This document shows, one piece after another, positions 19,784-50,138 of a DNA stretch of 50,138 nt. The notes under the pieces were generated by a model. The model had not been told where the DNA came from and ran no database searches. It worked only from the letters and a program-made list of their open reading frames with translations. The stretch lies in IMG/VR virus record IMGVR_UViG_3300029947_000009, positions 1-50,138 of that record, one strand, 5' to 3'. How positions within the stretch are numbered: position 1 is the stretch's first letter; every line of letters starts with the position of its first letter. The position numbers were made by a program, and so were the translations under genes. This DNA comes from a virus.

Positions 19784-20182
19784 TCACCATTTCTCTTGAT
19801 CTCTCTTCGACTTCGCTTCGAACGTAATCAGCTGAGCCACGAATTCGATGGGGTCTCTTCCATGAGCAGCACAAAGCTCCAACACTTTCCGAGTAAATAC
19901 CCGATCTTCGCCAGAGAGAGTATAAACTACTTCCACAGTAGCTGGAGGATAATTGGACTCCTGTGCTAGAGAACTTATGAGAATGGAGCGATCGATTTTT
20001 CGGGCTATCTCTTCGAGCTCTCTCCAAACCATAATAGTGGTTTCCTGAATCCCATATACCTCTCTTAGCTCATCAGAACTCTCATCAGTCCATTTTTCCA
20101 GCGCGTAGCAGTTGTATCTACTATCACAGCTTATGTACCCATCTTTTCGAGAAATGCAGCTATCACAGGGGAAATCAATCAT
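19784..20182 (-). CDS. Hypothetical protein
   Basis: 132 aa with an 8-nt overlap with the upstream deaminase gene. Preferred over the overlapping 19713..20027 ORF. Confidence 0.55.
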   Translation of the reverse strand: MIDFPCDSCISRKDGYISCDSRYNCYALEKWTDESSDELREVYGIQETTIMVWRELEEIARKIDRSILISSLAQESNYPPATVEVVYTLSGEDRVFTRKVLELCAAHGRDPIEFVAQLITFEAKSKRDQEKW

Positions 20183-20783
20183 TTAATATCACCTCCCCAC
20201 CCCAGAGCAGATCTAACTGCGTAACCTTAATTCCCGCCTTTTTCAGCAGTTCCAGTCCCGCAGAGTCTCTATAGTCCTCTAGATACTTCAGCTCCTTAAT
20301 ACCAGAGTTCACAATCACCTTAGCACAATTGATACAGGGTGACATAGTACAATACAGGATACAGTCTTCCACTGATACTCCAGCCCTGGCAGCAAAGGCA
20401 ATGGCATTAGTCTCAGCATGAAGACTCCTGGTACACCCCGGACCCATACAGACTCTCTGGTAATACTCCAGTCCTTCTCCCGAAGAGAAATAAGGATTCT
20501 TTACGTCCAGGCAGTCTATCAGGGGGTTAGGCTGTACACAGGGAGGCATGCCGGAGATAGGTCCATTGTATCCCATAGACACGATACGACCATCCTTCAC
20601 AACCACAGCTCCAACCTGGGACCGGAGACAGGTAGACCGTTGGGATACCAGCAGACAGGCCACAGAGAATAAGGTATCTCGAGACATCCTCTTTCGGGTT
20701 ATCAGGTTTTCAGTGTAGTCTTGATTCCTTTCTTGACACCCTGAGTTTTCTTGATAACACTGATTCTTGTCCTTGTTTTCCAT
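20175..20783 (-). CDS. dCMP deaminase (ComEB/T4 cd-like zinc deaminase)
   Basis: HAETNAI and SPCINCAK zinc-binding motifs, plus VSQRSTC. Confidence 0.85.
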   Translation of the reverse strand: MENKDKNQCYQENSGCQERNQDYTENLITRKRMSRDTLFSVACLLVSQRSTCLRSQVGAVVVKDGRIVSMGYNGPISGMPPCVQPNPLIDCLDVKNPYFSSGEGLEYYQRVCMGPGCTRSLHAETNAIAFAARAGVSVEDCILYCTMSPCINCAKVIVNSGIKELKYLEDYRDSAGLELLKKAGIKVTQLDLLWGGEVILND

Positions 20784-24167: not shown

Positions 24168-24187
24168 GAAAATTTTTAATTTACCCA

Positions 24188-24216
24188 TTTACAAACGCGT
24201 ACAAGAGTCTTATAAT
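24188..24216 (+). promoter_or_regulatory. CCATTTACA-family promoter
   Basis: aaaatttttaatttacccaTTTACAaacgcgtacaagagtctTATAAT. Confidence 0.65.
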
Positions 24217-25186: not shown

Positions 25187-25208
25187 CATAAAAATTTCAA
25201 CGAACCCA

Positions 25209-25237
25209 TTTACATTTCTATGACTATCTCTTATAAT
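25209..25237 (+). promoter_or_regulatory. CCATTTACA-family promoter
   Basis: aaaaatttcaacgaacccaTTTACAtttctatgactatctctTATAAT. Confidence 0.65.
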
Positions 25238-25269: not shown

Positions 25270-25476
25270 ATGAACAATCAGAATCTTATTTACCTAGAGA
25301 CCTATGACCCGGACCGGGACGTAGAGAGAATGGTAAATTCCAAACAGCAGCAGGCCCGCAGGGAGGCTCGTAGGGAGGCTCAGAAGAGAGCCATAGTAAA
25401 GAAACAGCTCAAGTATATAGGTTGGGCTTTCCTGGCTGGAATGCTGTTCGAAAGAATCTTAATTCAGGTTCTCTAA
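25270..25476 (+). CDS. Small membrane protein
   Basis: 68 aa with a C-terminal hydrophobic helix (IGWAFLAGMLFERILIQVL). Confidence 0.55.
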   Translation: MNNQNLIYLETYDPDRDVERMVNSKQQQARREARREAQKRAIVKKQLKYIGWAFLAGMLFERILIQVL

Positions 25477-25489
25477 GGGAGGTTATATT

Positions 25490-26314
25490 ATGAAGAAAGA
25501 CAGAAATCGTATCCTGGGGTCTCTTCTGGGGTTTGCTATTGGAGATGCCATGGGAGCAACCACGGAGTTCATGACCCAGGAGAAAATCCATCAGGAGTAT
25601 GGGGAGGTCAACCAAATCATCGGGGGAGGCTGGCTTGACCTGATACCTGGAGAAGTTACCGACGACACTCAAATGATGATGATTGTGGCCAACGCCCGCA
25701 TGAAAGGTAAGTGTGAGTTCCTCCATAATTGCTGTACTGGTTTTGTGAAGTGGCTCAAAAGTAACCCTGTGGACGTAGGAGGAGCCTGTAGGCTCGCAAT
25801 AGTCCAGGGGGGTAGTAATCCTCCCCGTGAGTGGATGCGACTCTCTAAGAGACGTCAGGAGGTTCGTGGAGTGATGGACCTTGGGAACGGGGCTGTTATG
25901 AGGGCTCTATTCCTAGCTCTGAGTGGGGAGGTTGATCTGGCCATAAATCAGGGAAGGCTAACCCACAACAACTCGGAATCCGGTTATTACATTGATAAGT
26001 ACTGTCAGAGTGTATCTTCGGCTCTCTACTCTATTCCGATCTATGGGCCTTCTCTTATGGAGCCTACTGGACACGTGAAGAACTCCGTTAATAATGCCAT
26101 TTACTGGAGTTCTCACTCTACCAACTTTCGAGAGGCTGTTATTGGCCCTGTAAATCATGGGGGGGACGCTGATACTATAGCCGCTCTAACGGGGGGAATT
26201 GCTGGGGCCTGTTATGGGGCTGATAATATCCCCAGAGAATGGGTAGAGACTCTTGATTCTAACGTAGTGGGGGATTTAATGAACATGGCCAATTGGCTAA
26301 TGGATAATCCCTAA
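25490..26314 (+). CDS. ADP-ribosylglycohydrolase family protein (DraG/ARH-like)
   Basis: GFAIGDAMGATTEF, EVTDDTQMM and GGDADTIAALTGGIAGACYG...IPREW match the ARH family metal-site motifs. Confidence 0.85.
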   Translation: MKKDRNRILGSLLGFAIGDAMGATTEFMTQEKIHQEYGEVNQIIGGGWLDLIPGEVTDDTQMMMIVANARMKGKCEFLHNCCTGFVKWLKSNPVDVGGACRLAIVQGGSNPPREWMRLSKRRQEVRGVMDLGNGAVMRALFLALSGEVDLAINQGRLTHNNSESGYYIDKYCQSVSSALYSIPIYGPSLMEPTGHVKNSVNNAIYWSSHSTNFREAVIGPVNHGGDADTIAALTGGIAGACYGADNIPREWVETLDSNVVGDLMNMANWLMDNP

Positions 26315-26316
26315 AT

Positions 26317-26347
26317 AGAGGAGCCCTACGGGGCTCTTCTTTTTTTT
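26317..26347 (+). terminator. Rho-independent terminator
   Basis: gagccc-tacg-gggctc hairpin followed by ttcttttttttt. Confidence 0.8.
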
Positions 26348-26367
26348 AGAAAATTTCAAATTAGCCA

Positions 26368-26396
26368 TTTACAAATTTCGACGATTCTCTTATAAT
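26368..26396 (+). promoter_or_regulatory. CCATTTACA-family promoter
   Basis: gaaaatttcaaattagccaTTTACAaatttcgacgattctctTATAAT. Confidence 0.65.
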
Positions 26397-27424: not shown

Positions 27425-27859
27425 GTGGGTAGAAAACGTAGGGTAAAGGTAGAGGTTACTCGAATTCGGGGCACTTACTACCTTTCTCAGGTAGGTGTAG
27501 AGGAAGACGAAATTAGGGCCTTAATCCTTAGGAGAAGGCTTCAGGTTTTAATTCATTCCTGTATCTATTACGTATTCAACGAAAATATAGTTTCTGATTC
27601 CACATGGAGTGGGTGGGCTAGGGAACTGGCCGAGCTTCAGAAAGAAAATCCATCTATAGCTTCCAGAGTAGATTATGCTTGGGAGTTTCAAGATTTTGAT
27701 GGGAGCACTGGGTTTCATCTACCTACTCGTAATCCCGAAATTATGGCAAAGGCCCAGTATCTTCTAAAATTATATAAGGAGGAAAAATATGGATACGTTG
27801 GACACCAAACTAATAGAGCAAAGCCTGGAAGTGATGTCATTAGAATCAAGATTCCATAG
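27425..27859 (+). CDS. Hypothetical protein
   Basis: 144 aa with a GTG start 6 nt after AGGAGG. The 3' end overlaps the next gene by 71 nt out of frame. Confidence 0.5.
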   Translation: MGRKRRVKVEVTRIRGTYYLSQVGVEEDEIRALILRRRLQVLIHSCIYYVFNENIVSDSTWSGWARELAELQKENPSIASRVDYAWEFQDFDGSTGFHLPTRNPEIMAKAQYLLKLYKEEKYGYVGHQTNRAKPGSDVIRIKIP

Positions 27860-28337
27860 ACTGAGGTGGCTTCGCTTCACGGGAACTTGTCTTAGGGAGT
27901 GTGCTCCCATGGACTTCTTTCTACAACCTGCCAGTATGTCGGGCAAGTGGCATCAGGGATACGAGTTAGGTGTGGGAGGACTGGTTCGTCATACTATAGC
28001 CGCTATGGATGTGGCTAGAACCCTATTTCCCACATATTCCTTTACTGAGGAGGAAGAGGATGCCATAGTCTCCGCTTTGGCCCTACATGATTTGGCTAAA
28101 CCCAGTAAGACCCATCCCCTTGAGGTAGAAGCTATTCTGGAGCCAATGAGAGACCAGTGGTATCTTGAAGTGGCAACTGTGGTATCTCTAATAGAGACTC
28201 ATCATGGTCAGTGGGACTACTATGGAAAGATGCCTCGTCCTAAAACTCCCAGCCAGCAGTTTGTTCATCTCTGTGACTACATATCCTCCCGCAAGAATAT
28301 TGCGGTGGATATATTTTATAAGGGGGAAACTAAATGA
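27789..28337 (+). CDS. HD-domain phosphohydrolase
   Basis: VRHTIAAMDVA ... ALALHDLAKP ... ETHHGQWDY (H...HD...H pattern), with an AAGGAGG RBS. Confidence 0.7.
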   Translation: MDTLDTKLIEQSLEVMSLESRFHRLRWLRFTGTCLRECAPMDFFLQPASMSGKWHQGYELGVGGLVRHTIAAMDVARTLFPTYSFTEEEEDAIVSALALHDLAKPSKTHPLEVEAILEPMRDQWYLEVATVVSLIETHHGQWDYYGKMPRPKTPSQQFVHLCDYISSRKNIAVDIFYKGETK

Positions 28338-28993
28338 AGGTTATTAAGTCCACAGTTGAGCCCCTGTTCTTTCCTGATCGGGAAACCCTGTATGGACTCA
28401 TCGAAACCGCAGGGAGAACCTGCTACCAGTCTGAAAAAGTAGAAGGGGATACCACTGAGAAATTCATCCAAAGACTTATGAAAAGAAAGCACTGGTCGGT
28501 ACTGGAGCATGCCAACCTTTCTATTCGCTTTACCTGTGATCGGGGTGTAACTCATGAGCTGGTTCGTCATCGAATTGCTTCCTACTCCCAGGAAAGCACT
28601 CGGTATTGTAATTATGCTGGGGATAAGTTTGGGGGGGGGGAGATCAAGTTCATTGATCTGGCCACCGGGTTCAATTATGACCTGAGTAACCCTGGGGACC
28701 TAGCCAAGTACGGGGTCTGGGCGAGAGCTATGGAGGATGCCGAGAAGTACTATATGGAGATGCTGAAGATTGGGGCTACCCCCCAGGAGGCTCGTTCGGT
28801 ACTTCCCAACAGTACCAAAACCGAGATTGTAGTAACTATGAATGTAAGGGAGTGGAGACACTTCTTGGAAATGAGGTGGGTCGGTGTAGCTGGCACTCCC
28901 CATCCCCAGATGGTAGAAGTGGCTGAAGAGGTTTATAACCTATTGAACTACTATTATCCCGCCCTCTTTGGGGATATCAAGAAGGCTAAATAA
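28334..28993 (+). CDS. thyX: Flavin-dependent thymidylate synthase ThyX
   Basis: Perfect ThyX motif RHRIASYSQESTR (RHRxxSxxxxSxR). Confidence 0.9.
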   Translation: MKVIKSTVEPLFFPDRETLYGLIETAGRTCYQSEKVEGDTTEKFIQRLMKRKHWSVLEHANLSIRFTCDRGVTHELVRHRIASYSQESTRYCNYAGDKFGGGEIKFIDLATGFNYDLSNPGDLAKYGVWARAMEDAEKYYMEMLKIGATPQEARSVLPNSTKTEIVVTMNVREWRHFLEMRWVGVAGTPHPQMVEVAEEVYNLLNYYYPALFGDIKKAK

Positions 28994-31767: not shown

Positions 31768-32304
31768 ATGTTAATCTTTACTGGAATGGACAACTCGGGA
31801 AAGACTACCCTGGCTGTTAAGGTCTCTCAAAAACTAGGCCTTCCCCTGGTTAAGTCCATGGGACCTAACCACACAAAGGATGAGAAGCACCTCTGGTTTT
31901 TGGACCAGATGACCCGGGAGACAGCTTTTCCAGATTCTGTCATTTTTGATCGATTCCTTCCCTTTGAGGAGATGGTATATGGGAAGGTTCTGAGGGGAGA
32001 CCCCATCTACTCTCTGGATGACCCCTACATGAGATCTTTGAAAGATCTCGATCCCACCATTATTTATACTCGACCCTCCTCTGAGGTTATCTTCAATTTT
32101 GGTGATCGGGAACAGATGGCCGGGGTAGTAGAAACCCGGGAGAAACTCCTGATTGCCTGGGATGACCTGATGTGGAAGCTGCTCAATTCCGGATGGAACG
32201 TCCAGATCTACGATTATACTATGGACTCGGATTTCGAAGAAAAATTCAAGTCCACCTCAGAAGTTCTGAAAGAGTTTTTCGAAAATCACAAGGAGGAAGA
32301 ATAA
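31768..32304 (+). CDS. P-loop (deoxy)nucleoside monophosphate kinase-like protein
   Basis: The N-terminal P-loop FTGMDNSGKTTLA resembles the dTMP-kinase GxDGxGKTT motif. Confidence 0.6.
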   Translation: MLIFTGMDNSGKTTLAVKVSQKLGLPLVKSMGPNHTKDEKHLWFLDQMTRETAFPDSVIFDRFLPFEEMVYGKVLRGDPIYSLDDPYMRSLKDLDPTIIYTRPSSEVIFNFGDREQMAGVVETREKLLIAWDDLMWKLLNSGWNVQIYDYTMDSDFEEKFKSTSEVLKEFFENHKEEE

Positions 32305-32957
32305 TGAATATCAACCATGCTGTGGAAGAAAAGGTCGAGGGTGACCTGCTGAAGGCCATCTTTGATCGGCAGAAATCCCTGATGAGAAAGTATCACGACA
32401 TCGAACTGAAGTCTGGATTGCTTCAGACTGGGGACTGCCCTGTGAACCTGGATGACAAGAGAGGTCAGGCCCGAATCAAGGATTTCTCCTGGAGAGTTAC
32501 CGAGGAGCTTGGAGAGGCTCTGGATGCCAAGACCAGTAAGGAACACTATCAGGAGGAGCTTATCGATGGTCTTCATTTCCTGACTGAGCTGACTATCCTG
32601 GCCGGCAAGGACTACGATACTATTCTTCCCCAGGGCATTCCTGTATACGATGAGGACCATCTGAAAGACCTGGTAGAGAATGCCAGAGATATCCTTCACT
32701 CCAATGACCGTTCCCTCAACTATTGGGTTTCTCACTTCATTGAGCAGCTGGCTATGATGTGCAACTGCCTGAAGAACAAGCCCTGGAAGCAGTCCATGAT
32801 GAAGACTGACCAGGAAGCTTTCTATCGCCGACTGATGGAAGTTTGGATTTGTTATATTACAATTCTGGTAACTTCTGGACTATCGGCTGAGGACATTGCC
32901 AGTGTGTACCTAAAGAAGTCCCAGGTTAATCAGTTCCGTCAACGTTCTAACTACTAA
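32304..32957 (+). CDS. All-alpha NTP pyrophosphatase (dimeric dUTPase / MazG-like family)
   Basis: Start at the ATG at 32304 (TAATG overlap, AAGGAGGAAG RBS). Contains RVTEELGEALDA...EELIDGLHFLTEL and a C-terminal YLKKSQVNQFRQRSNY, typical of dUTPase_2-type enzymes. Confidence 0.6.
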   Translation: MNINHAVEEKVEGDLLKAIFDRQKSLMRKYHDIELKSGLLQTGDCPVNLDDKRGQARIKDFSWRVTEELGEALDAKTSKEHYQEELIDGLHFLTELTILAGKDYDTILPQGIPVYDEDHLKDLVENARDILHSNDRSLNYWVSHFIEQLAMMCNCLKNKPWKQSMMKTDQEAFYRRLMEVWICYITILVTSGLSAEDIASVYLKKSQVNQFRQRSNY

Positions 32958-33714: not shown

Positions 33715-34446
33715 ATGAGAATCTACATCAACGCAGAAGAGATGATCGAGGAGACAAAGAGGGATCTCGCTGAGATGGGTATTGTGGTAAGACCTGCAAC
33801 CATGCAGGACAAATACGTCAAGGGAGATCCCGACTATGAAACCCGGGAGCTTCAGAACTATTCCTACTGCCTGTTGGATGCCAAGAGTCAGGATATTCCG
33901 GGGGTATCCCAGCCCTGGGCGGATGCTGAGTTTGGGGAGAGAGTTACGGACCCCTGGTATCGTACTCCTGATGGAAAAGTTGATCCTCTCCACACTCCAG
34001 AATACCTCAACCCCGGAAGTGCCTGGAGACTACGTAAGGAGGTATGGACTGAGTACCTGCACGAGGGTAAGATGGCCTATACCTACAACGAGCTTATCTG
34101 GAATAATGACCAGGCAGTTAAGGTCATCAATCGCCTGAAGGAGGACCCCGACTCCCGTCAGCTGTGGATTAGTCTTTGGAATCCTGATAAGGACCCGGAC
34201 TTTCTAGGGGGTATTTCCCGAGTTCCCTGTTCCCTGGGGTATGGCCTCCAGGTTCGTGATGGGAAGCTCAATCTGCACTATGTAATGAGGTCCTGTGACT
34301 TCGCTACCCATTTCCGAAACGATGTCTACCTGGCCATTCGGTTCTTGGAGTGGGTAGCTGAGAAAACCGGCTATCCTGTGGGAAGCTTTACCCACACTAT
34401 CTTCTCCCTGCATGTGTACAACAAGGACGTGGAAGGAGTATTCTAA
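33715..34446 (+). CDS. Thymidylate synthase-fold enzyme (dNMP C5-methylase/hydroxymethylase-like, paralogue B)
   Basis: SRQLWISLWNP, VPCSLGYGLQVRDGKLNLHYVMRSCDFATHFRNDVYLA and FTHTIFSLHVY align with ThyA SRR..vs.WNP, PPCH..fQFYV.dGkLs..lyQRSCDvFLG.PFNIASY and H..GD.HiY. Confidence 0.8.
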   Translation: MRIYINAEEMIEETKRDLAEMGIVVRPATMQDKYVKGDPDYETRELQNYSYCLLDAKSQDIPGVSQPWADAEFGERVTDPWYRTPDGKVDPLHTPEYLNPGSAWRLRKEVWTEYLHEGKMAYTYNELIWNNDQAVKVINRLKEDPDSRQLWISLWNPDKDPDFLGGISRVPCSLGYGLQVRDGKLNLHYVMRSCDFATHFRNDVYLAIRFLEWVAEKTGYPVGSFTHTIFSLHVYNKDVEGVF

Positions 34447-36890
34447 TGACCTGTAATAACTGCAACCTCTGTTCTTTCTCGGACCCATCCTGCATATGGG
34501 GATCTGGAAACCCCAAGGCCAAAGTTATGGTGGTTAATAGCTACGCCAGTGAACAGGATGAGGAAAGGGGGGCGGCAGTAATGCCGTCCTCCCTCGTAGA
34601 AAGACTTCAGGGAATAGGAATAGACCCCGAAAAGGTCTACTATACCAACGCTATTAAATGTGCCTGTCCCAGAGGTACCAAATTTAAGGCTGGGGACATT
34701 AAGAAATGTAAAGTTCATCTAGATCAAGAGATTGCCCAGGTAAAACCACAGTTCATTTTAGTTTTAGGAGCTCAGGCTCTAAAAGCCACAGTAGACGGCT
34801 CTATTACAGAATTAAACGGAGTAATGGTGGAGAGGGATGGGGTTAAGTATATGCCCTCCTATAGCCCGGGAATAGTGTACCGAGATCCAGGTAAGGCTCC
34901 CTTTGTGGATAAGGCTATGAACAATTTTAAGTCGATGGTGAAAGGGGACCTGGATGGACCTCCTGAGCTGGACGTTAGAGTCATAGCTAATATGAGACAA
35001 CTTAAAAGGGCCTTTCAGTATCTGACCGAAAATGGCTACCTTCACCTTAGCTATGATATAGAAACCACAGGTCTAGTAAGGTTCGAGGACGAGGTAAATC
35101 TATTTGGATTTGGAAATGACCAGGTTCAGTATATTATACCCCTGGAGGCTCCCCTGAGCCCGCTGAAGGGCCTAAGGATGGCACAACATAAACTTATAAC
35201 CACTGCCATAAAGTGGTTAAATAGGAACGCTAAGGACCTAGTAGCAGGCAATGGAAAGTTCGATGATCTATTCCTGGAGTATAAGTTTGGGGTGAAGCCC
35301 CATATAACCTTTGACGTAGTATTGGCCTCCCATATTCTAAATGAGAATACCCCAAACGGAGTCAAGGAGAATGCCGTTCAGGAGTGCAATGCCCCCAACT
35401 GGGATGTGGATAAAAACCTAAAGACTGGCCAGTACAGTTCCCCTGAAAAGTATCAGGAGTATTTAACCTACCTCGGATATGATATCTATTATGAATACAA
35501 GCTTTTTAGGGTATTCCGAAAGAAATTAAAACAGGATAAGGCCCTGATGAAACTCTTCTACCACTTATATATGCCGGGAATAATATCCTATGAGACTGTG
35601 GAACAACATGGGGTATTTATCTATCCCCAGCAGTTTAAGGAGGTAAGGAAGCATCTGGAATCTGAGAAATCCAAGATTGAGAAACAGCTCCTTAAACTGG
35701 CTGGGCATGAGGTAAACTGGAACTCCCCAGCTCAAATTCAAAAACTACTCTATGAAGAACTAAAATTGCCTATTCTGGAGAGAACTGAGTCAGGAGCCCC
35801 CTCCACAAGTGAGGCTACTATGATGCAGTTACGAGAGGAGCACCCCATAGTAGAACTAATCCTTAAATACCGGGGGGTAAATATTCAGATTTCCCATTTT
35901 ATAGATGGATGGATAAATCGAATGTGGGGAAGGAGATTGTTTCCCAATTTCAAACTTCACGGAACTGTAACGGGAAGAACCTCCTGTACTGACCCCAACC
36001 TTCAGCAGGTCCCTAGAGACCCCATCATTCGGAATTTGGTAGGAGCTCCAGAAGGTTGGTCTGTGGTTGAGATAGACTATTCTCAGGCTGAACTTCGTAT
36101 TGCTGCCATAATGTCCGGGGACGAGACCATGACCCGGATATATCAAACTGGGGGAGATATCCATACCCACACTTACGAGATGATAACGGGAGAAAAGGTC
36201 TCAGATGATAAGTATATCCGGAAAGAGCAAAGAAAGAAAGCCAAGGCCGTTAATTTTGGATTTGTTTATGGAATGGGCTGGAAGAAGTTCAAGATATATG
36301 CTAGAGATAACTATGGGGTTGATCTTACTGATAAGGAAGCCGAACAGTGGCGGGAGAAGTTTTTTGATACCTACCATTCCCTACCCAAATGGCACTCTAA
36401 GCAAAGGAGAATAGTCCAGTCTATGGGACAGGTAAGAAGTCCTATAGGGAGAATAAGAAGACTTCCTGATATTTATTCCACAGATAAATCTAAAAAGGCT
36501 GAAGCTGAGAGACAGAGTATAAACTCCCCCGTTCAAGGATTTGGTTCAGACCTTACTATTTTGGGGATGTCTGAAATTATGGGCAATGCCCAGTACTATG
36601 ACCCTGACTATGTATTGGATAAGGATAAGTTCTTTGTCATAGGAACCGTGCACGATGCTACTTTGTTCGAGGTAAGGAATGACTATTTAATGGAATTTTG
36701 CCCAAGGGCTAAGCATATTTTGGAACATCCAAAGGCACTTGAGGAAGTATTCCACTTCGAGACTGATGTACCCATTATAGCCGATGTGGCCGTTGGTAGA
36801 TCCTGGGGGGCTGGTAAGGAACTTCACATGGACCCTGGGGATGAAACCTGGAAACAAGAAATACAGGAGTATCTAGATAGTCTAAAATAA
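34446..36890 (+). CDS. Family A DNA polymerase with 3'-5' exonuclease and an N-terminal degenerate UDG (family 4)-like domain
   Basis: Exo motifs: LSYDIETTGL, NGKFDDLFL, YLGYDIYYEY. Pol motifs: VVEIDYSQAELRIAA (A), RKKAKAVNFGFVYGMG (B), IGTVHDA (C). The N-terminus CNNCNLC...GSGNPKAKVMVVNSYASEQDEERG...YYTNAIKCACP has a UDG4 layout, but GEAPG is replaced by NSYAS. Confidence 0.9.
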   Translation: MTCNNCNLCSFSDPSCIWGSGNPKAKVMVVNSYASEQDEERGAAVMPSSLVERLQGIGIDPEKVYYTNAIKCACPRGTKFKAGDIKKCKVHLDQEIAQVKPQFILVLGAQALKATVDGSITELNGVMVERDGVKYMPSYSPGIVYRDPGKAPFVDKAMNNFKSMVKGDLDGPPELDVRVIANMRQLKRAFQYLTENGYLHLSYDIETTGLVRFEDEVNLFGFGNDQVQYIIPLEAPLSPLKGLRMAQHKLITTAIKWLNRNAKDLVAGNGKFDDLFLEYKFGVKPHITFDVVLASHILNENTPNGVKENAVQECNAPNWDVDKNLKTGQYSSPEKYQEYLTYLGYDIYYEYKLFRVFRKKLKQDKALMKLFYHLYMPGIISYETVEQHGVFIYPQQFKEVRKHLESEKSKIEKQLLKLAGHEVNWNSPAQIQKLLYEELKLPILERTESGAPSTSEATMMQLREEHPIVELILKYRGVNIQISHFIDGWINRMWGRRLFPNFKLHGTVTGRTSCTDPNLQQVPRDPIIRNLVGAPEGWSVVEIDYSQAELRIAAIMSGDETMTRIYQTGGDIHTHTYEMITGEKVSDDKYIRKEQRKKAKAVNFGFVYGMGWKKFKIYARDNYGVDLTDKEAEQWREKFFDTYHSLPKWHSKQRRIVQSMGQVRSPIGRIRRLPDIYSTDKSKKAEAERQSINSPVQGFGSDLTILGMSEIMGNAQYYDPDYVLDKDKFFVIGTVHDATLFEVRNDYLMEFCPRAKHILEHPKALEEVFHFETDVPIIADVAVGRSWGAGKELHMDPGDETWKQEIQEYLDSLK

Positions 36891-39779: not shown

Positions 39780-40211
39780 ATGGGAAGTAAGCCAGAGACC
39801 GGAGTAGTCAAGTCCATAATGGACCTTCTAAAATCTTCCTTTCCAGGACTATATTTCAAGACCCATGGGGGACTATACCAGAGAATTGGACTTCCCGATA
39901 TACTGGGAGTACATAGGGGTAGGTTCATAGGAATTGAGGTAAAATATCCTGGAAAGGAGGATACTCTCTCTAAACTCCAGGAAAGGACCCTGGACCTAAT
40001 CAATCTATATGGCGGGGTAGGATTTATGTCCACCTCACCTGAGGATACAAACCACAAACTTAAGGAGGAAATGAAAACATGGCCAGTACCAATGAAAAGC
40101 TCAAAAAGCTCAAGGAAATCCATCAGCAGGAAGAAGCTCTCTACTCCGAGAGAAATGAGAAGTACGGAGACAGCTTCGCAAAAACCTTCAAGGAGTACGG
40201 GAAGCCGGTAG
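39780..40211 (+). CDS. VRR-NUC domain nuclease
   Basis: GLPDILGVHRGRFIGIEVKYPGKEDTLSKLQERTL matches the VRR-NUC core (PD...E.K...Q). The RBS is weak. The last ~44 codons overlap the next gene out of frame. Confidence 0.6.
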   Translation: MGSKPETGVVKSIMDLLKSSFPGLYFKTHGGLYQRIGLPDILGVHRGRFIGIEVKYPGKEDTLSKLQERTLDLINLYGGVGFMSTSPEDTNHKLKEEMKTWPVPMKSSKSSRKSISRKKLSTPREMRSTETASQKPSRSTGSR

Positions 40212-40666
40212 CCCTGATTCGCCTGGAGGACAAGCTCAATCGGGCTAAAAACCTGATTTCCCTGGGGATGGAAGGTTCTGATGGGGAATCTCTCATCGAT
40301 ACTCTGAAGGATCTGTCCAACTACGCCAACATGACCATCATCGAGCTGACGCTCAATCCTGAAGTGAAGGATGAGACTGCCCAGGAAGCTCCCAAGAAGA
40401 AGAGAAAGAAGGTCAAGGGTGAGGCTGCCCCGGCCATGGAGACTGAGACTCCCAAGGAGAAAGGTCCCCTGGACGATCTGACCAAGAAGCAGCTCACTGA
40501 GATCATCTCCCAGCTGGGGGGAACAGTTCCCAAGAAAGCCAACCGGGAAAAGCTGACCTCCCTGATCAATGGCTTCCCCAAGGCCAAGGTAGCTGTGGCT
40601 ATCACCTCCCTGAAGTCCTCTACTGAGACCTCTGAGGAGAAGACTGAAAATGGTGAAGAGGAATAA
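40079..40666 (+). CDS. DUF1599-like protein with a C-terminal HeH-like motif
   Basis: ERNEKYGDSFAKTFKEYGKPVALIRLEDKLNRAKNL resembles DUF1599. The C-terminus reads LTKKQLTEIISQLGGTVPKKANREKLTSLI. Confidence 0.55.
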   Translation: MASTNEKLKKLKEIHQQEEALYSERNEKYGDSFAKTFKEYGKPVALIRLEDKLNRAKNLISLGMEGSDGESLIDTLKDLSNYANMTIIELTLNPEVKDETAQEAPKKKRKKVKGEAAPAMETETPKEKGPLDDLTKKQLTEIISQLGGTVPKKANREKLTSLINGFPKAKVAVAITSLKSSTETSEEKTENGEEE

Positions 40667-42518: not shown

Positions 42519-42986
42519 ATGGAATATGTAAAACACAAATACTCAAAGAGAGTGTATAGGGTAATGACCGACCATGGACCTGAGCACCCTTATTTATCTA
42601 GTTTCCCCTACGTTAGAAATATATCCACAGGAATGTTGGAAAGATTTTTTTTTTCCTGTGGGAAGCCCCAGGTAGAGTATGAATCCCCTGTGCCAGTGGG
42701 TAAGGAGATAGAGTGGGAGAAGCGTCAACTAAGACGTGAGGAGCCAATAGTGGTGAAATCCCCCCAGGTAATATCCAAATCTAGAGCCAGGAATAAAAGA
42801 CCCCCCCAGGTCAAGCAGGGGCCTAGGGAATATACCTTAAAAGACCTTTGTTCTGAATTGGGGATTTCTCCCACTGTAGCCAGAAAGGTTCTTAGGTCTA
42901 AGGGGATGACAGCTCCCGAAGGAGGATGGAGATGGCCTAGTCCTGAAGCTGCCAAAGACATAAAAGAAATTTTGAAAAATTTTTAA
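42519..42986 (+). CDS. Hypothetical protein; its C-terminal domain is paralogous to that of 43079..43567
   Basis: YTLKDLCSELGISPTVARKVLRSKGMTAPEGGWRW compared with ITLKELAAEFHMKGTKARRLLRNASISRPYGGNRWEW. Confidence 0.6.
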   Translation: MEYVKHKYSKRVYRVMTDHGPEHPYLSSFPYVRNISTGMLERFFFSCGKPQVEYESPVPVGKEIEWEKRQLRREEPIVVKSPQVISKSRARNKRPPQVKQGPREYTLKDLCSELGISPTVARKVLRSKGMTAPEGGWRWPSPEAAKDIKEILKNF

Positions 42987-42994
42987 TTTACCCA

Positions 42995-43023
42995 TTTACA
43001 AATCTCGAATTATCTCTTATAAT
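42995..43023 (+). promoter_or_regulatory. CCATTTACA-family promoter
   Basis: aaaaatttttaatttacccaTTTACAaatctcgaattatctctTATAATgtaaatgtaaatc. Confidence 0.65.
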
Positions 43024-43078: not shown

Positions 43079-43567
43079 ATGACTAACCTGACCAACATCA
43101 ATCTGGAGACCCTGACTGCTACTGAACTCAAGACTCTGGCTAAGGAGTTCAAGGTAAAGAACTGGTGGAATCTGAAGAAGACTGACCTTATCACTGAGCT
43201 GACCAATATTAGACTGGACCTGGAAGACAAAGCTGCTGTCCAAAGGGCCAACGAGAAATATAAGGAGGAGCTCGAGAAGATGGCCAATAAGGTTTATCAG
43301 GAAGAAAAAATCCCCCAGAAGCCCAAGACCTCTTCTACTTCCAAAAAGACTTCTAAGGCTCCTAAGGTGGAGAAGGATGAGGAAAACCTGATAACCCTGA
43401 AAGAACTAGCTGCTGAGTTCCACATGAAGGGAACTAAGGCTCGGAGACTTCTTAGGAATGCTTCCATCTCCCGTCCCTATGGGGGCAATCGCTGGGAGTG
43501 GGATAAAAACCTTCACGTCGACGAACTGAATATGGCCAGGGAATATCTGAAGGCTCACATCAAGTAA
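43079..43567 (+). CDS. Hypothetical protein with an N-terminal HeH/Rho-N-like motif and a conserved C-terminal domain
   Basis: LTATELKTLAKEFKVKNWWNLKKTDLITEL at the N-terminus. Confidence 0.6.
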   Translation: MTNLTNINLETLTATELKTLAKEFKVKNWWNLKKTDLITELTNIRLDLEDKAAVQRANEKYKEELEKMANKVYQEEKIPQKPKTSSTSKKTSKAPKVEKDEENLITLKELAAEFHMKGTKARRLLRNASISRPYGGNRWEWDKNLHVDELNMAREYLKAHIK

Positions 43568-49379: not shown

Positions 49380-50138
49380 CTATCGCTTGTTGCGGATGAT
49401 GACGATGCCTGAACCGCCTGCTGTTCCGGTACTAGCGTTAACGTGATCTGTACCGCCGCCGCCTCCACCACGGTTTGCGGGTGGGGAAGTCTTTGGCGCT
49501 CCTGCGGTTTCATCAATCGGCGGTTTTGAAGCCCCTACAGTCGTCAGTTGTCCGCTGCTGCCGCCACCGGAATACAATCGGCCAGAAGATTCACCAAATT
49601 CTCTTGTCGTGGAGCCTTGTCCTTTTCCACGAGAATTATCAGGGCCTTCGCCATCGCTACCATCTGTTCCGCCATAACGGGCGCCATTTGACCCATATGC
49701 ACCGCCACCAGAACCGCCATCTCCGCCTTTGCCATCATTAGATCCATATCCTGCGCCCGGTTTTCCACCACTAGCGGAAGCACCAAAGATGGAGGATTCA
49801 CCGCCAGGGGATTCCTTCCCCCCACCAGCGCCGACAACAATCGTATACGTAGTATTCGCATGCACCGCAACGGCTTTTATTGTCTTGGTATATCCACCAC
49901 CACCACCGCCGCCGTAGGTTCCGGAAGATCCGCCTCCCCCTCCTCCCCCAACGAGGAAGACGTCGATACCGCCCTCCGCACCGTTGAGGTTGGTAAACGT
50001 CAGCGTGCCGGAGGTAAGGAAGCGGATTTTCCAGTTGCCCGTCCAAGTCGCAAAATCCGAAATGGCGTTATCGTTGTCGTCGACGATTGCGTAGTCGCCG
50101 GTATAGGTGAATTCGGGGGTGTTTCTGGGGCTGGAAAA
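49380..50138 (-). CDS. Glycine-rich tail fibre protein, 3' part of the gene that starts at 465
   Basis: The frame is open from the window end: FSSPRNTPEFTYTGDYAIVDDNDNAISDFATWTGNWKIRFLTSGTLTFTNLNGAEGGIDVFLVGGGGGGGSSGTYGGGGGGGYTKTIKAVAVHANTTYTIVVGAGGG... The M shown by the track at 49865 is an internal GTG. Confidence 0.8.
   Translation of the reverse strand, partial: FSSPRNTPEFTYTGDYAIVDDNDNAISDFATWTGNWKIRFLTSGTLTFTNLNGAEGGIDVFLVGGGGGGGSSGTYGGGGGGGYTKTIKAVAVHANTTYTIVVGAGGGKESPGGESSIFGASASGGKPGAGYGSNDGKGGDGGSGGGAYGSNGARYGGTDGSDGEGPDNSRGKGQGSTTREFGESSGRLYSGGGSSGQLTTVGASKPPIDETAGAPKTSPPANRGGGGGGTDHVNASTGTAGGSGIVIIRNKR
50040..50138. repeat. Second copy of the 99-bp terminal overlap
   Basis: Identical to 1-99. 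Confidence 0.95.

Follow-up and report, generated by a model that had tools for sequence, protein, structure and literature searches.

An early-arm DraG-type hydrolase as the probable eraser of a phage's own head-packaged MuF ADP-ribosyltransferase

The viral record IMGVR_UViG_3300029947_000009 of IMG/VR, analysed here over its full length of 50,138 nucleotides (hereafter the window), encodes a DraG-type ADP-ribosyl(arginine) hydrolase (ARH) in its replication arm and, within its head genes, a MuF minor head protein that ends in an ADP-ribosyltransferase (ART) domain (Table 1). We consider it likely that ARH is the enzymatic eraser, or antidote, of the phage's own head-packaged MuF-ART, and that the two form a three-part system with orf67, a small Cys4 protein encoded next to the toxin gene. 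A writer/eraser pair, for temporal reversal or self-protection, had been put forward in a preliminary description of the same DNA, and it is supported here by homologues of ARH that adjoin MuF-ART genes, by the cassette ancestry of ARH, by the matching arginine types of the two enzymes and by the precedent of Bxa and BAH. The window system is of the Bxa/BAH/Bsi kind, from which it departs in its unlinked early ARH, in a genome where no lysogeny genes were detected, in its Cys4 partner and in its Bacillota host clade; because its ARH does not adjoin the toxin gene, and its genome did not yield the lysogeny genes of a temperate phage, we file it as a variant rather than as a plain member.

The assignment of the hydrolase to the ARH/DraG family, made earlier from short motifs, proved correct. 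All three motifs quoted at the time (GDAMGATTEF, TDDTQM and GGDADTIAALTGGIAGACYG) are present in the open reading frame (ORF), and the predicted protein matches PF03747 (ADP_ribosyl_GH) with 158.5 bits (cut-off 26.2), the match falling into two segments that span both ends of the domain, as well as phrog_6572 in PHROGs. Its nearest solved structures by sequence are those of DraG (2woc, E=2e-41; 3g9d, 3e-33), followed by Tri1 (6dre, E=4e-23) and Lmo0067 (8za7_A, E=1.3e-14). An AlphaFold2 (AF2) model built on 23 homologues is all-helical, with 15 helices, a predicted local distance difference test score (pLDDT) of 96 and a predicted template modelling score (pTM) of 0.94, and a Foldseek search with it likewise places DraG 2woc first (template modelling score, TM, 0.84; E=2e-18), then Tri1 and 8za7_A. 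The catalytic residues of DraG, E28, D60 and D97 (PMC8120803), align with E26, D58 and D95 of ARH, and among the 23 homologues, at identities down to 48%, E26, T57-D58-D59-T60, D95 and D226/D228/T229 are invariant, the last set corresponding to the C-terminal D-x-D-T motif (D226-x-D228-T229). The predicted metal and catalytic site of ARH is complete, and its nearest similarity to DraG and Tri1, both classed as Protein-R-ADPr hydrolases (PMC8120803), suggests the Arg-ADP-ribose linkage as its substrate. At the N-terminus, 9 residues precede the first invariant position, G10, and there is no Tri1-type N-terminal extension.

That the same phage carries a virion ART is likewise borne out. The ORF of the proposed writer combines Phage_Mu_F with ADPrib_exo_Tox (71 bits) and adjoins the portal, TerL and TerS genes, while its ART domain covers approximately residues 400-611 (about 12170-12802), preserves the catalytic motifs R (LRRG), STS and ExE (GEGE), and finds its top PDB match in Lmo0066 (8za7_B, E=5.5e-6). 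Among R-S-E ARTs, the ExE form is typical of arginine-specific toxins, and judged by these motifs the window ART is of the ExE, arginine-specific type. Arginine is also what its closest characterised relatives, Bxa and Tre1, modify (PMC11699363; PMC8120803).

The link between the two enzymes emerges from related phages, for which we pooled 181 viral loci anchored on MuF-ART, ARH, primase and TerL and searched their ORFs with profiles; a scan of viral contigs with the single ARH sequence had given no match, and an alignment query recovered the relatives. Outside the window clade, ARH directly follows MuF on the same strand (gene order TerL, portal, MuF, small ORF, ARH), and the late operon of related phages features a three-gene cassette in the order MuF-ART, orf67, ARH. 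Taking the ARH-anchored viral loci that extend 3 kb or more upstream and score 290 bits or more for ARH, we find MuF-ART immediately upstream of ARH in 30 of 33, the remaining three being of the early-arm type seen in the window. Searches against Pfam confirmed ADPrib_exo_Tox in all but one of 14 sampled ARH-adjacent MuF proteins (13/14), some of which are barely similar to the window ART. A TerL-anchored set was chosen without regard to ART or ARH, and its members were merged into lineages at 90% MuF identity. Of the 10 lineages with MuF-ART, 5 have ARH next to it, against 0 of 13 in which MuF is short or extended by something other than an ART; the window's own clade accounts for three of the five MuF-ART lineages that lack such a neighbour.

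Within that clade, ARH sits in a variable slot just upstream of a conserved DUF2786 gene. Flanks in the pooled loci reached at most 10 kb, no single ARH- or MuF-anchored locus spanned both genes, and primase and TerL loci were pooled by contig name; with this scope, the early-arm position is kept in further contigs of about 50 kb, at ARH identities down to 56%, and a second complete genome combines MuF-ART, orf67 and an early-arm ARH. Neighbour-joining (NJ) trees unite the early-arm ARHs in a single clade in 179 of 200 bootstrap replicates, and in 176 of 200 the sister of this clade is made up of cassette ARHs alone. A single relocation of a cassette ARH into the early arm is the simplest reading of these trees, and the position of ARH away from the toxin is a derived, unusual state. 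The early-arm ARH is under purifying selection, with a dN/dS of 0.09-0.12 comparable to those of ThyX and DUF2786. In the NJ tree, chromosomal ARHs of Peptoniphilaceae (loci L187-L200, L203, L208-L210 and L239, from Anaerococcus, Parvimonas, Finegoldia, Helcococcus, Ezakiella and related genomes) also fall inside the phage-cassette ARH radiation, and have no MuF-ART or orf67 nearby.

The slot upstream of DUF2786 behaves as an accessory-gene hot-spot, and may also hold Pyr_excise, a pyrimidine-dimer DNA glycosylase, either replacing ARH (L099 5742-6179) or beside it (L261 9585-9980). An early accessory hot-spot between conserved genes is a frequent site of counter-defence genes, which speaks for the other option raised in the preliminary description, namely that an early ARH removes ADP-ribosylation set on phage or host proteins by host ART-based immunity; so do the patchy presence of ARH among family members, as for a host-range accessory gene, and the existence of orphan de-ADP-ribosylating phage enzymes acting against DarT1, as described in PMC11825919. 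We nevertheless consider this role improbable. No PADLOC model is matched by any component (ARH, the ART domain, the stand-alone Nlig-Ia protein, DUF932, DUF2786, orf68 or orf67), and no comparative signal supports it. Among the literature records searched, the known ART defences modify DNA (DarT) or mRNA (CmdT), and DarT marks are reversed by macro or NADAR folds rather than DraG-type ones (PMC9503650, PMC8120803), whereas the fold found in the window is that of ARH and neither macro nor NADAR. The ancestry of ARH is, moreover, that of the MuF-ART cassette, the TerL-anchored lineages without ART show no ARH beside MuF, and contig 141547, the sole non-ART phage with its early-arm slot in view, has no ARH there.

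The third component of the proposed system, orf67, features four invariant cysteines (CxxC...C...C), matches no Pfam, PHROG or PADLOC family, and yields an AF2 single-chain model with a pLDDT of 49.7, too low to use. In ART-bearing relatives its homologues come straight after MuF-ART, which in the cassette type places them between the toxin and ARH, and none was found among the pooled viral loci in which MuF has no ART. When each similarity is measured against the window copy, among sequences that are not phylogenetically independent, that of orf67 tracks the ART domain (Spearman coefficient 0.75, p=3e-8, and a partial value of 0.74 once the MuF N-domain is accounted for), with a value of 0.37 against the MuF N-domain and a non-significant 0.22 against ARH. 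We infer with moderate confidence that orf67 is a toxin binder. An exhaustive profile search returned 138 clusters of orf67-type proteins at 50% identity, and P0140 presents a seamless natural fusion with orf67 at the N-terminus of an ARH from the window ARH's own subfamily. This layout recalls that of Tri1, in which an N-terminal extension precedes a DraG-like domain, and by analogy the occluding role of the Tri1 extension may have been split off into orf67.

Two further observations concern the same protein. DUF1643 and DUF6508 proteins also end in an orf67-like Cys4 module, as do, with weak scores, GNAT-acetyltransferase proteins (P0152, P0141, P0253, P0254), and this module may be a more general small zinc-binding one. 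In contigs 072473 (L108 12408-14576) and 045134 (L109 7067-9235), ART and orf67 have undergone joint divergence or a joint swap within a packaging module that is otherwise nearly identical to that of the window: compared with the window, TerL stands at 89%, the MuF N-domain at more than 500 bits, ART at 32% identity and orf67 at E~1e-5, and the early-arm ARH is still 65% identical despite the ART/orf67 change. As far as the sequences tell, this change is a polymorphic-toxin-style cassette exchange.

MuF-fused toxins with downstream immunity genes have been described by Jamet et al. 2017 (PMC5576092), only in temperate phages, while MuF fusions to Alt/VIP2-type ARTs and a phage pair of ART and ADP-ribosylglycohydrolase (ART-ARG) were reported by Iyer et al. 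2022 (PMC9503650), and ARH genes beside Bxa homologues are mentioned in PMC10083569, with reference to Brown et al. 2021. The prophage PhiBxa of Bacteroides stercoris encodes Bxa together with BAH and Bsi. Bxa was shown to kill bacteria and to be a promiscuous modifier of arginines by ADP-ribosylation, which BAH reverses as an enzyme (Alexei et al. 2024, PMC11699363); Bsi binds and blocks Bxa, and BAH alone rescued cells fully while Bsi alone did so moderately (PMC11699363). The window system shares with this one a MuF protein fused to an ART of the Arg-specific type, an ARH-family hydrolase as proposed eraser and a small, presumably non-enzymatic neighbour of the toxin, and its cassette-type relatives share the Bxa-like layout, with ARH and small ORFs beside MuF-ART. 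It differs in that its ARH is 11.5 kb away from the toxin gene and on the opposite strand, in the replication arm, where a host-type promoter precedes it, and in that its genome is complete with no integrase detected and its host clade is Bacillota rather than Bacteroides; the Bxa type belongs to temperate phages, whereas no lysogeny genes were detected in the window genome. Furthermore, the nearest relative of the window ARH is DraG, while human ARH1 served as the comparison for BAH, and orf67 might correspond either to Bsi or to the inactive RS09440.

Other systems resemble single parts of this arrangement. In the Tre1/Tri1 pair of the Serratia type VI secretion system (T6SS; PDB 6DRE/6DRH), an R-S-E Arg ART is likewise matched with a DraG-like reversing immunity protein, and Tri1 both occludes Tre1 and reverses its arginine modification (PMC8120803); unlike Tri1, with its occluding N-terminal extension, the window ARH has none, and delivery of the window ART would be by phage capsid rather than by T6SS. 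Both halves of Lmo0066/Lmo0067 from Listeria monocytogenes, a member of Bacillota, deposited as 8ZA7 under the title 'ART-ARH type toxin effector-immunity protein pair', match the window ART and ARH; this pair is cellular and neither MuF-fused nor phage-packaged. DraT/DraG provides the closest ARH by sequence and fold, an Arg-ADPr mono-hydrolase with an E-D-D triad and a dimetal site that also belongs to a writer/eraser pair, but one with a single substrate (Fe protein Arg101), control through PII and membrane sequestration, and an operon shared with DraT, whereas the writer proposed here is a packaged toxin domain. The MuF toxins of the Apk2/Aph1/Tis1 type (PMC10083569) combine, by the same logic, a toxin fused to MuF with a hydrolase directed at the toxin's product and with an inhibitor that works by binding, but act through (p)ppApp synthesis and hydrolysis, with all genes adjacent and in a temperate phage. 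Finally, Alt of phage T4 is also a virion-packaged ART that is injected with the DNA, without need of lysogeny, as cited in PMC5576092 and PMC10083569. It differs in not being MuF-fused. We know of no phage-encoded eraser in T4.

In the mechanism that we propose, MuF-ART would be built in at the portal and enter the cell with the DNA, as has been proposed for SPP1 gp7-like MuF proteins, and the injected ART would mono-ADP-ribosylate arginines of host proteins. Co-produced with the toxin in the late operon, orf67 would restrain newly made toxin, while ARH would strip Arg-ADP-ribose off proteins. Expressed from a host-type promoter of the early, or replication, arm, the hydrolase would be available both shortly after injection and when toxin is made late in infection, and would confine the action of the injected toxin to a brief period and shield the cell while virions assemble. 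Because such a hydrolase targets the product and not the toxin, it would need neither co-evolution with nor adjacency to the toxin gene, and both its relocation and its occasional loss could be explained by this product-directed action. It is possible, though on balance doubtful, that in this apparently non-temperate lineage the cassette has been rewired into a timed pulse, where the ART would mark host arginines in the first minutes, early ARH would erase the marks and restore needed host machinery, and orf67 would silence new toxin until packaging. If true, this would amount to a phage-encoded write-then-erase host takeover, and MuF toxins would have a part to play in lytic infection.

Several observations weigh against the pairing of ARH with the phage's own toxin. 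The ARH gene of the window is located 11.5 kb from the toxin gene, on the opposite strand and in another module, without the adjacency seen in the cassettes, and the early timing of its expression is a prediction from promoter type and gene position. Contig 055661 keeps MuF-ART (ART domain 78% identical) and orf67, and has Pyr_excise and no ARH in the slot, while contig IMGVR_UViG_3300013947_000375 carries an ARH pseudogene (L093 3770-4308), with a frameshift after the GGG(W) motif and about 90 internal residues lost, next to intact ART and orf67; about 7 kb of each of these two contigs lies outside what was examined. Inactivation of the ART was considered as the reason for these losses and rejected, the R/STS/ExE motifs being intact in 055661 and 3300013947_000375. 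As two relatives thus carry intact ART and orf67 and no working ARH, the hydrolase is not strictly required and is dispensable in at least some hosts, which by analogy with Bxa would fit redundancy through a second protective protein. MuF-ART is missing from the neighbourhood of many chromosomal ARH relatives in Bacillota, and the trees that place the early-arm ARHs were built by neighbour-joining. The phylogenetic non-independence of the sequences behind the similarity correlations, given above for orf67, counts on the same side.

The similarity of ARH is also unrelated to that of the ART (rho -0.10), giving no positive sign of pairing, and a value of this kind is expected for a product-directed eraser. 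The same uncoupling could be read as a sign that early ARH is an orphan, broad-spectrum immunity against the MuF-ARTs of superinfecting or competing phages and not against the phage's own toxin: MuF-ARTs are common in this phage group, a product-directed hydrolase would counter any Arg-specific ART, and polymorphic toxin systems are known to include polyimmunity loci as well as immunity genes that are orphans (PMC11699363). It would leave unexplained why ARH is restricted to genomes with their own MuF-ART, and we regard it as quite unlikely to be the role of ARH in place of self-protection, with which it is compatible and could coexist.

What is new in the window, compared with known MuF toxin systems, is the move of ARH to an early unit with a host-type promoter in a genome without a detected integrase, together with the tie between ART toxins and a Cys4 protein family, represented here by a member of 67 aa, and the loss of ARH from two relatives in which ART and orf67 are intact. 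The role of MuF-fused toxins during infection is an open question (PMC10083569, PMC11699363), and characterised examples are prophage cassettes, read as protecting the lysogen that makes the toxin. This phage family offers a natural experiment, with an unlinked eraser, an early promoter, no lysogeny genes detected, and sister phages that lack the eraser but retain toxin and partner. It makes three ideas testable, namely toxin action at injection, timed erasure, and a split immunity in which a toxin-specific binder co-evolves with the toxin whereas a product-specific enzyme does not. With ARH relocated, immunity apparently split and variants at hand that have naturally lost ARH, the role of MuF toxins in infection becomes experimentally approachable.

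Table 1. Positions in the window of the genes and regulatory elements under discussion
Feature	Position	Strand	Remarks
ARH, DraG-type ADP-ribosyl(arginine) hydrolase, proposed eraser	25490..26314	+	274 aa; PF03747, DraG match, AF2 model
MuF (SPP1 gp7-like) minor head protein with C-terminal ART, proposed writer	12167..14005	-	Phage_Mu_F, ADPrib_exo_Tox
orf67, candidate toxin-binding partner or second immunity protein	11906..12109	-	67 aa; 57 bp past MuF-ART stop
Promoter element, drives orf68 and ARH	25191..25237	+	-35 TTTACA, 17-nt spacer, -10 TATAAT
orf68, C-terminal hydrophobic segment, apparently co-transcribed with ARH	25270..25476	+	68 aa
Intrinsic-terminator-like hairpin and T-run	26317..26349	+	begins 3 nt past ARH stop; 10 pairs, 6 GC
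47-nt element copies	24170-24216, 25191-25237, 26350-26396, 42977-43023	+	

Regarding its transcription, ARH had been described as sitting in its own promoter/terminator cassette; the promoter and the terminator are both found, but the unit comprises two genes, orf68 and ARH, each preceded by a GGAGG-type ribosome-binding site. The sigma-70-type promoter (25209-25237, + strand) agrees with TTGACA-17-TATAAT at 11 of 12 positions and lies within a 47-nt element with the pattern AAATTTCAA-N6-CCATTTACA-N15-CTTATAAT, which occurs in four plus-strand copies in the replication arm and in none of 100 shuffles. These four elements define a small co-regulated set comprising DUF932, the orf68-ARH unit, DUF2786 with the genes that follow it, and a Rho_N/SAP-domain gene at 43079. 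Expression of ARH is predicted to be early on account of such host-type promoters and of the replication-arm position. The upstream gene orf68 has no Pfam, PHROG or PADLOC match; with homologues in L264 and also in L099, a relative without ARH, it was rejected as an ARH-specific partner.

The first and last 99 bp of the window are identical (1-99 and 50040-50138), which makes it a complete circular assembly of approximately 50,039 bp. Packaging, head, tail and lysis genes occupy a minus-strand arm, while the plus-strand arm carries DUF932, ARH, DUF2786/DUF7168, a small helix-turn-helix (HTH) protein, a solo Nlig-Ia, HD and ThyX, as well as a primase-helicase, dUTPase, a thymidylate-synthase-like protein, PolA, a nuclease, a recombination-type ATPase and an SNF2 helicase. 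Searches of the larger ORFs against Pfam and PHROGs detected no integrase, recombinase or repressor in any of them, which is not proof of a virulent lifestyle, and no close prophage copy was found in 185,579 species genomes, where the top ARH identity is 46%. Cellular ARH relatives, at no more than that identity, are mainly from Bacillota (Ruminococcus, Lachnospiraceae, Peptoniphilaceae). Among 50,697 phage records, megablast with 8 kb around ARH gave no match, and we report no cultured relative, because tblastn with ARH against the same records returned Bacillus phage G alone, at 33% identity.

The stand-alone Nlig-Ia protein, the NAD+-binding domain of an NAD-dependent ligase (27425-27859), overlaps the HD phosphohydrolase gene (27789-28337). 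With this pair 1.1 kb downstream of ARH, solo Nlig-Ia proteins predicted to be NAD+ sensors (Iyer et al. 2022, PMC9503650) and some ARH-family enzymes acting on O-acetyl-ADP-ribose (OAADPr; PMC9503650), it could be imagined that ARH cleaves a small molecule, either OAADPr-like or a signalling nucleotide, in concert with Nlig-Ia and HD. We hold this to be highly unlikely, since the nearest relatives of ARH are protein-Arg-ADPr hydrolases. A functional link of ARH to Nlig-Ia/HD was itself rejected: the pair is present in all relatives, with or without ARH or ART, and shows no co-variation with either, and a terminator and a new promoter separate it from ARH.

Two further features of the genome deserve mention. 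A protein with the C-terminal, DNA-binding domain of Spo0A is encoded at 18681-19100 (-) and is kept in relatives L261-L263 and L265, a hint that the phage interferes with the host's control of sporulation and that this host belongs to the spore-forming Clostridia. The data point to Clostridia of the gut as hosts. In addition, the window contains pyrimidine genes at 20175-20783 (-), 28334-28993, 32172-32957, 33715-34446, 34446-36890 and 40079-40666, encoding dCMP deaminase, ThyX, dUTPase_2, a second thymidylate-synthase-like protein, PolA, which bears an N-terminal UDG-superfamily domain, and DUF1599, the 'nucleotide modification associated domain 1'. This dense set of pyrimidine-metabolism and modification genes suggests the presence of a modified pyrimidine in the phage DNA.

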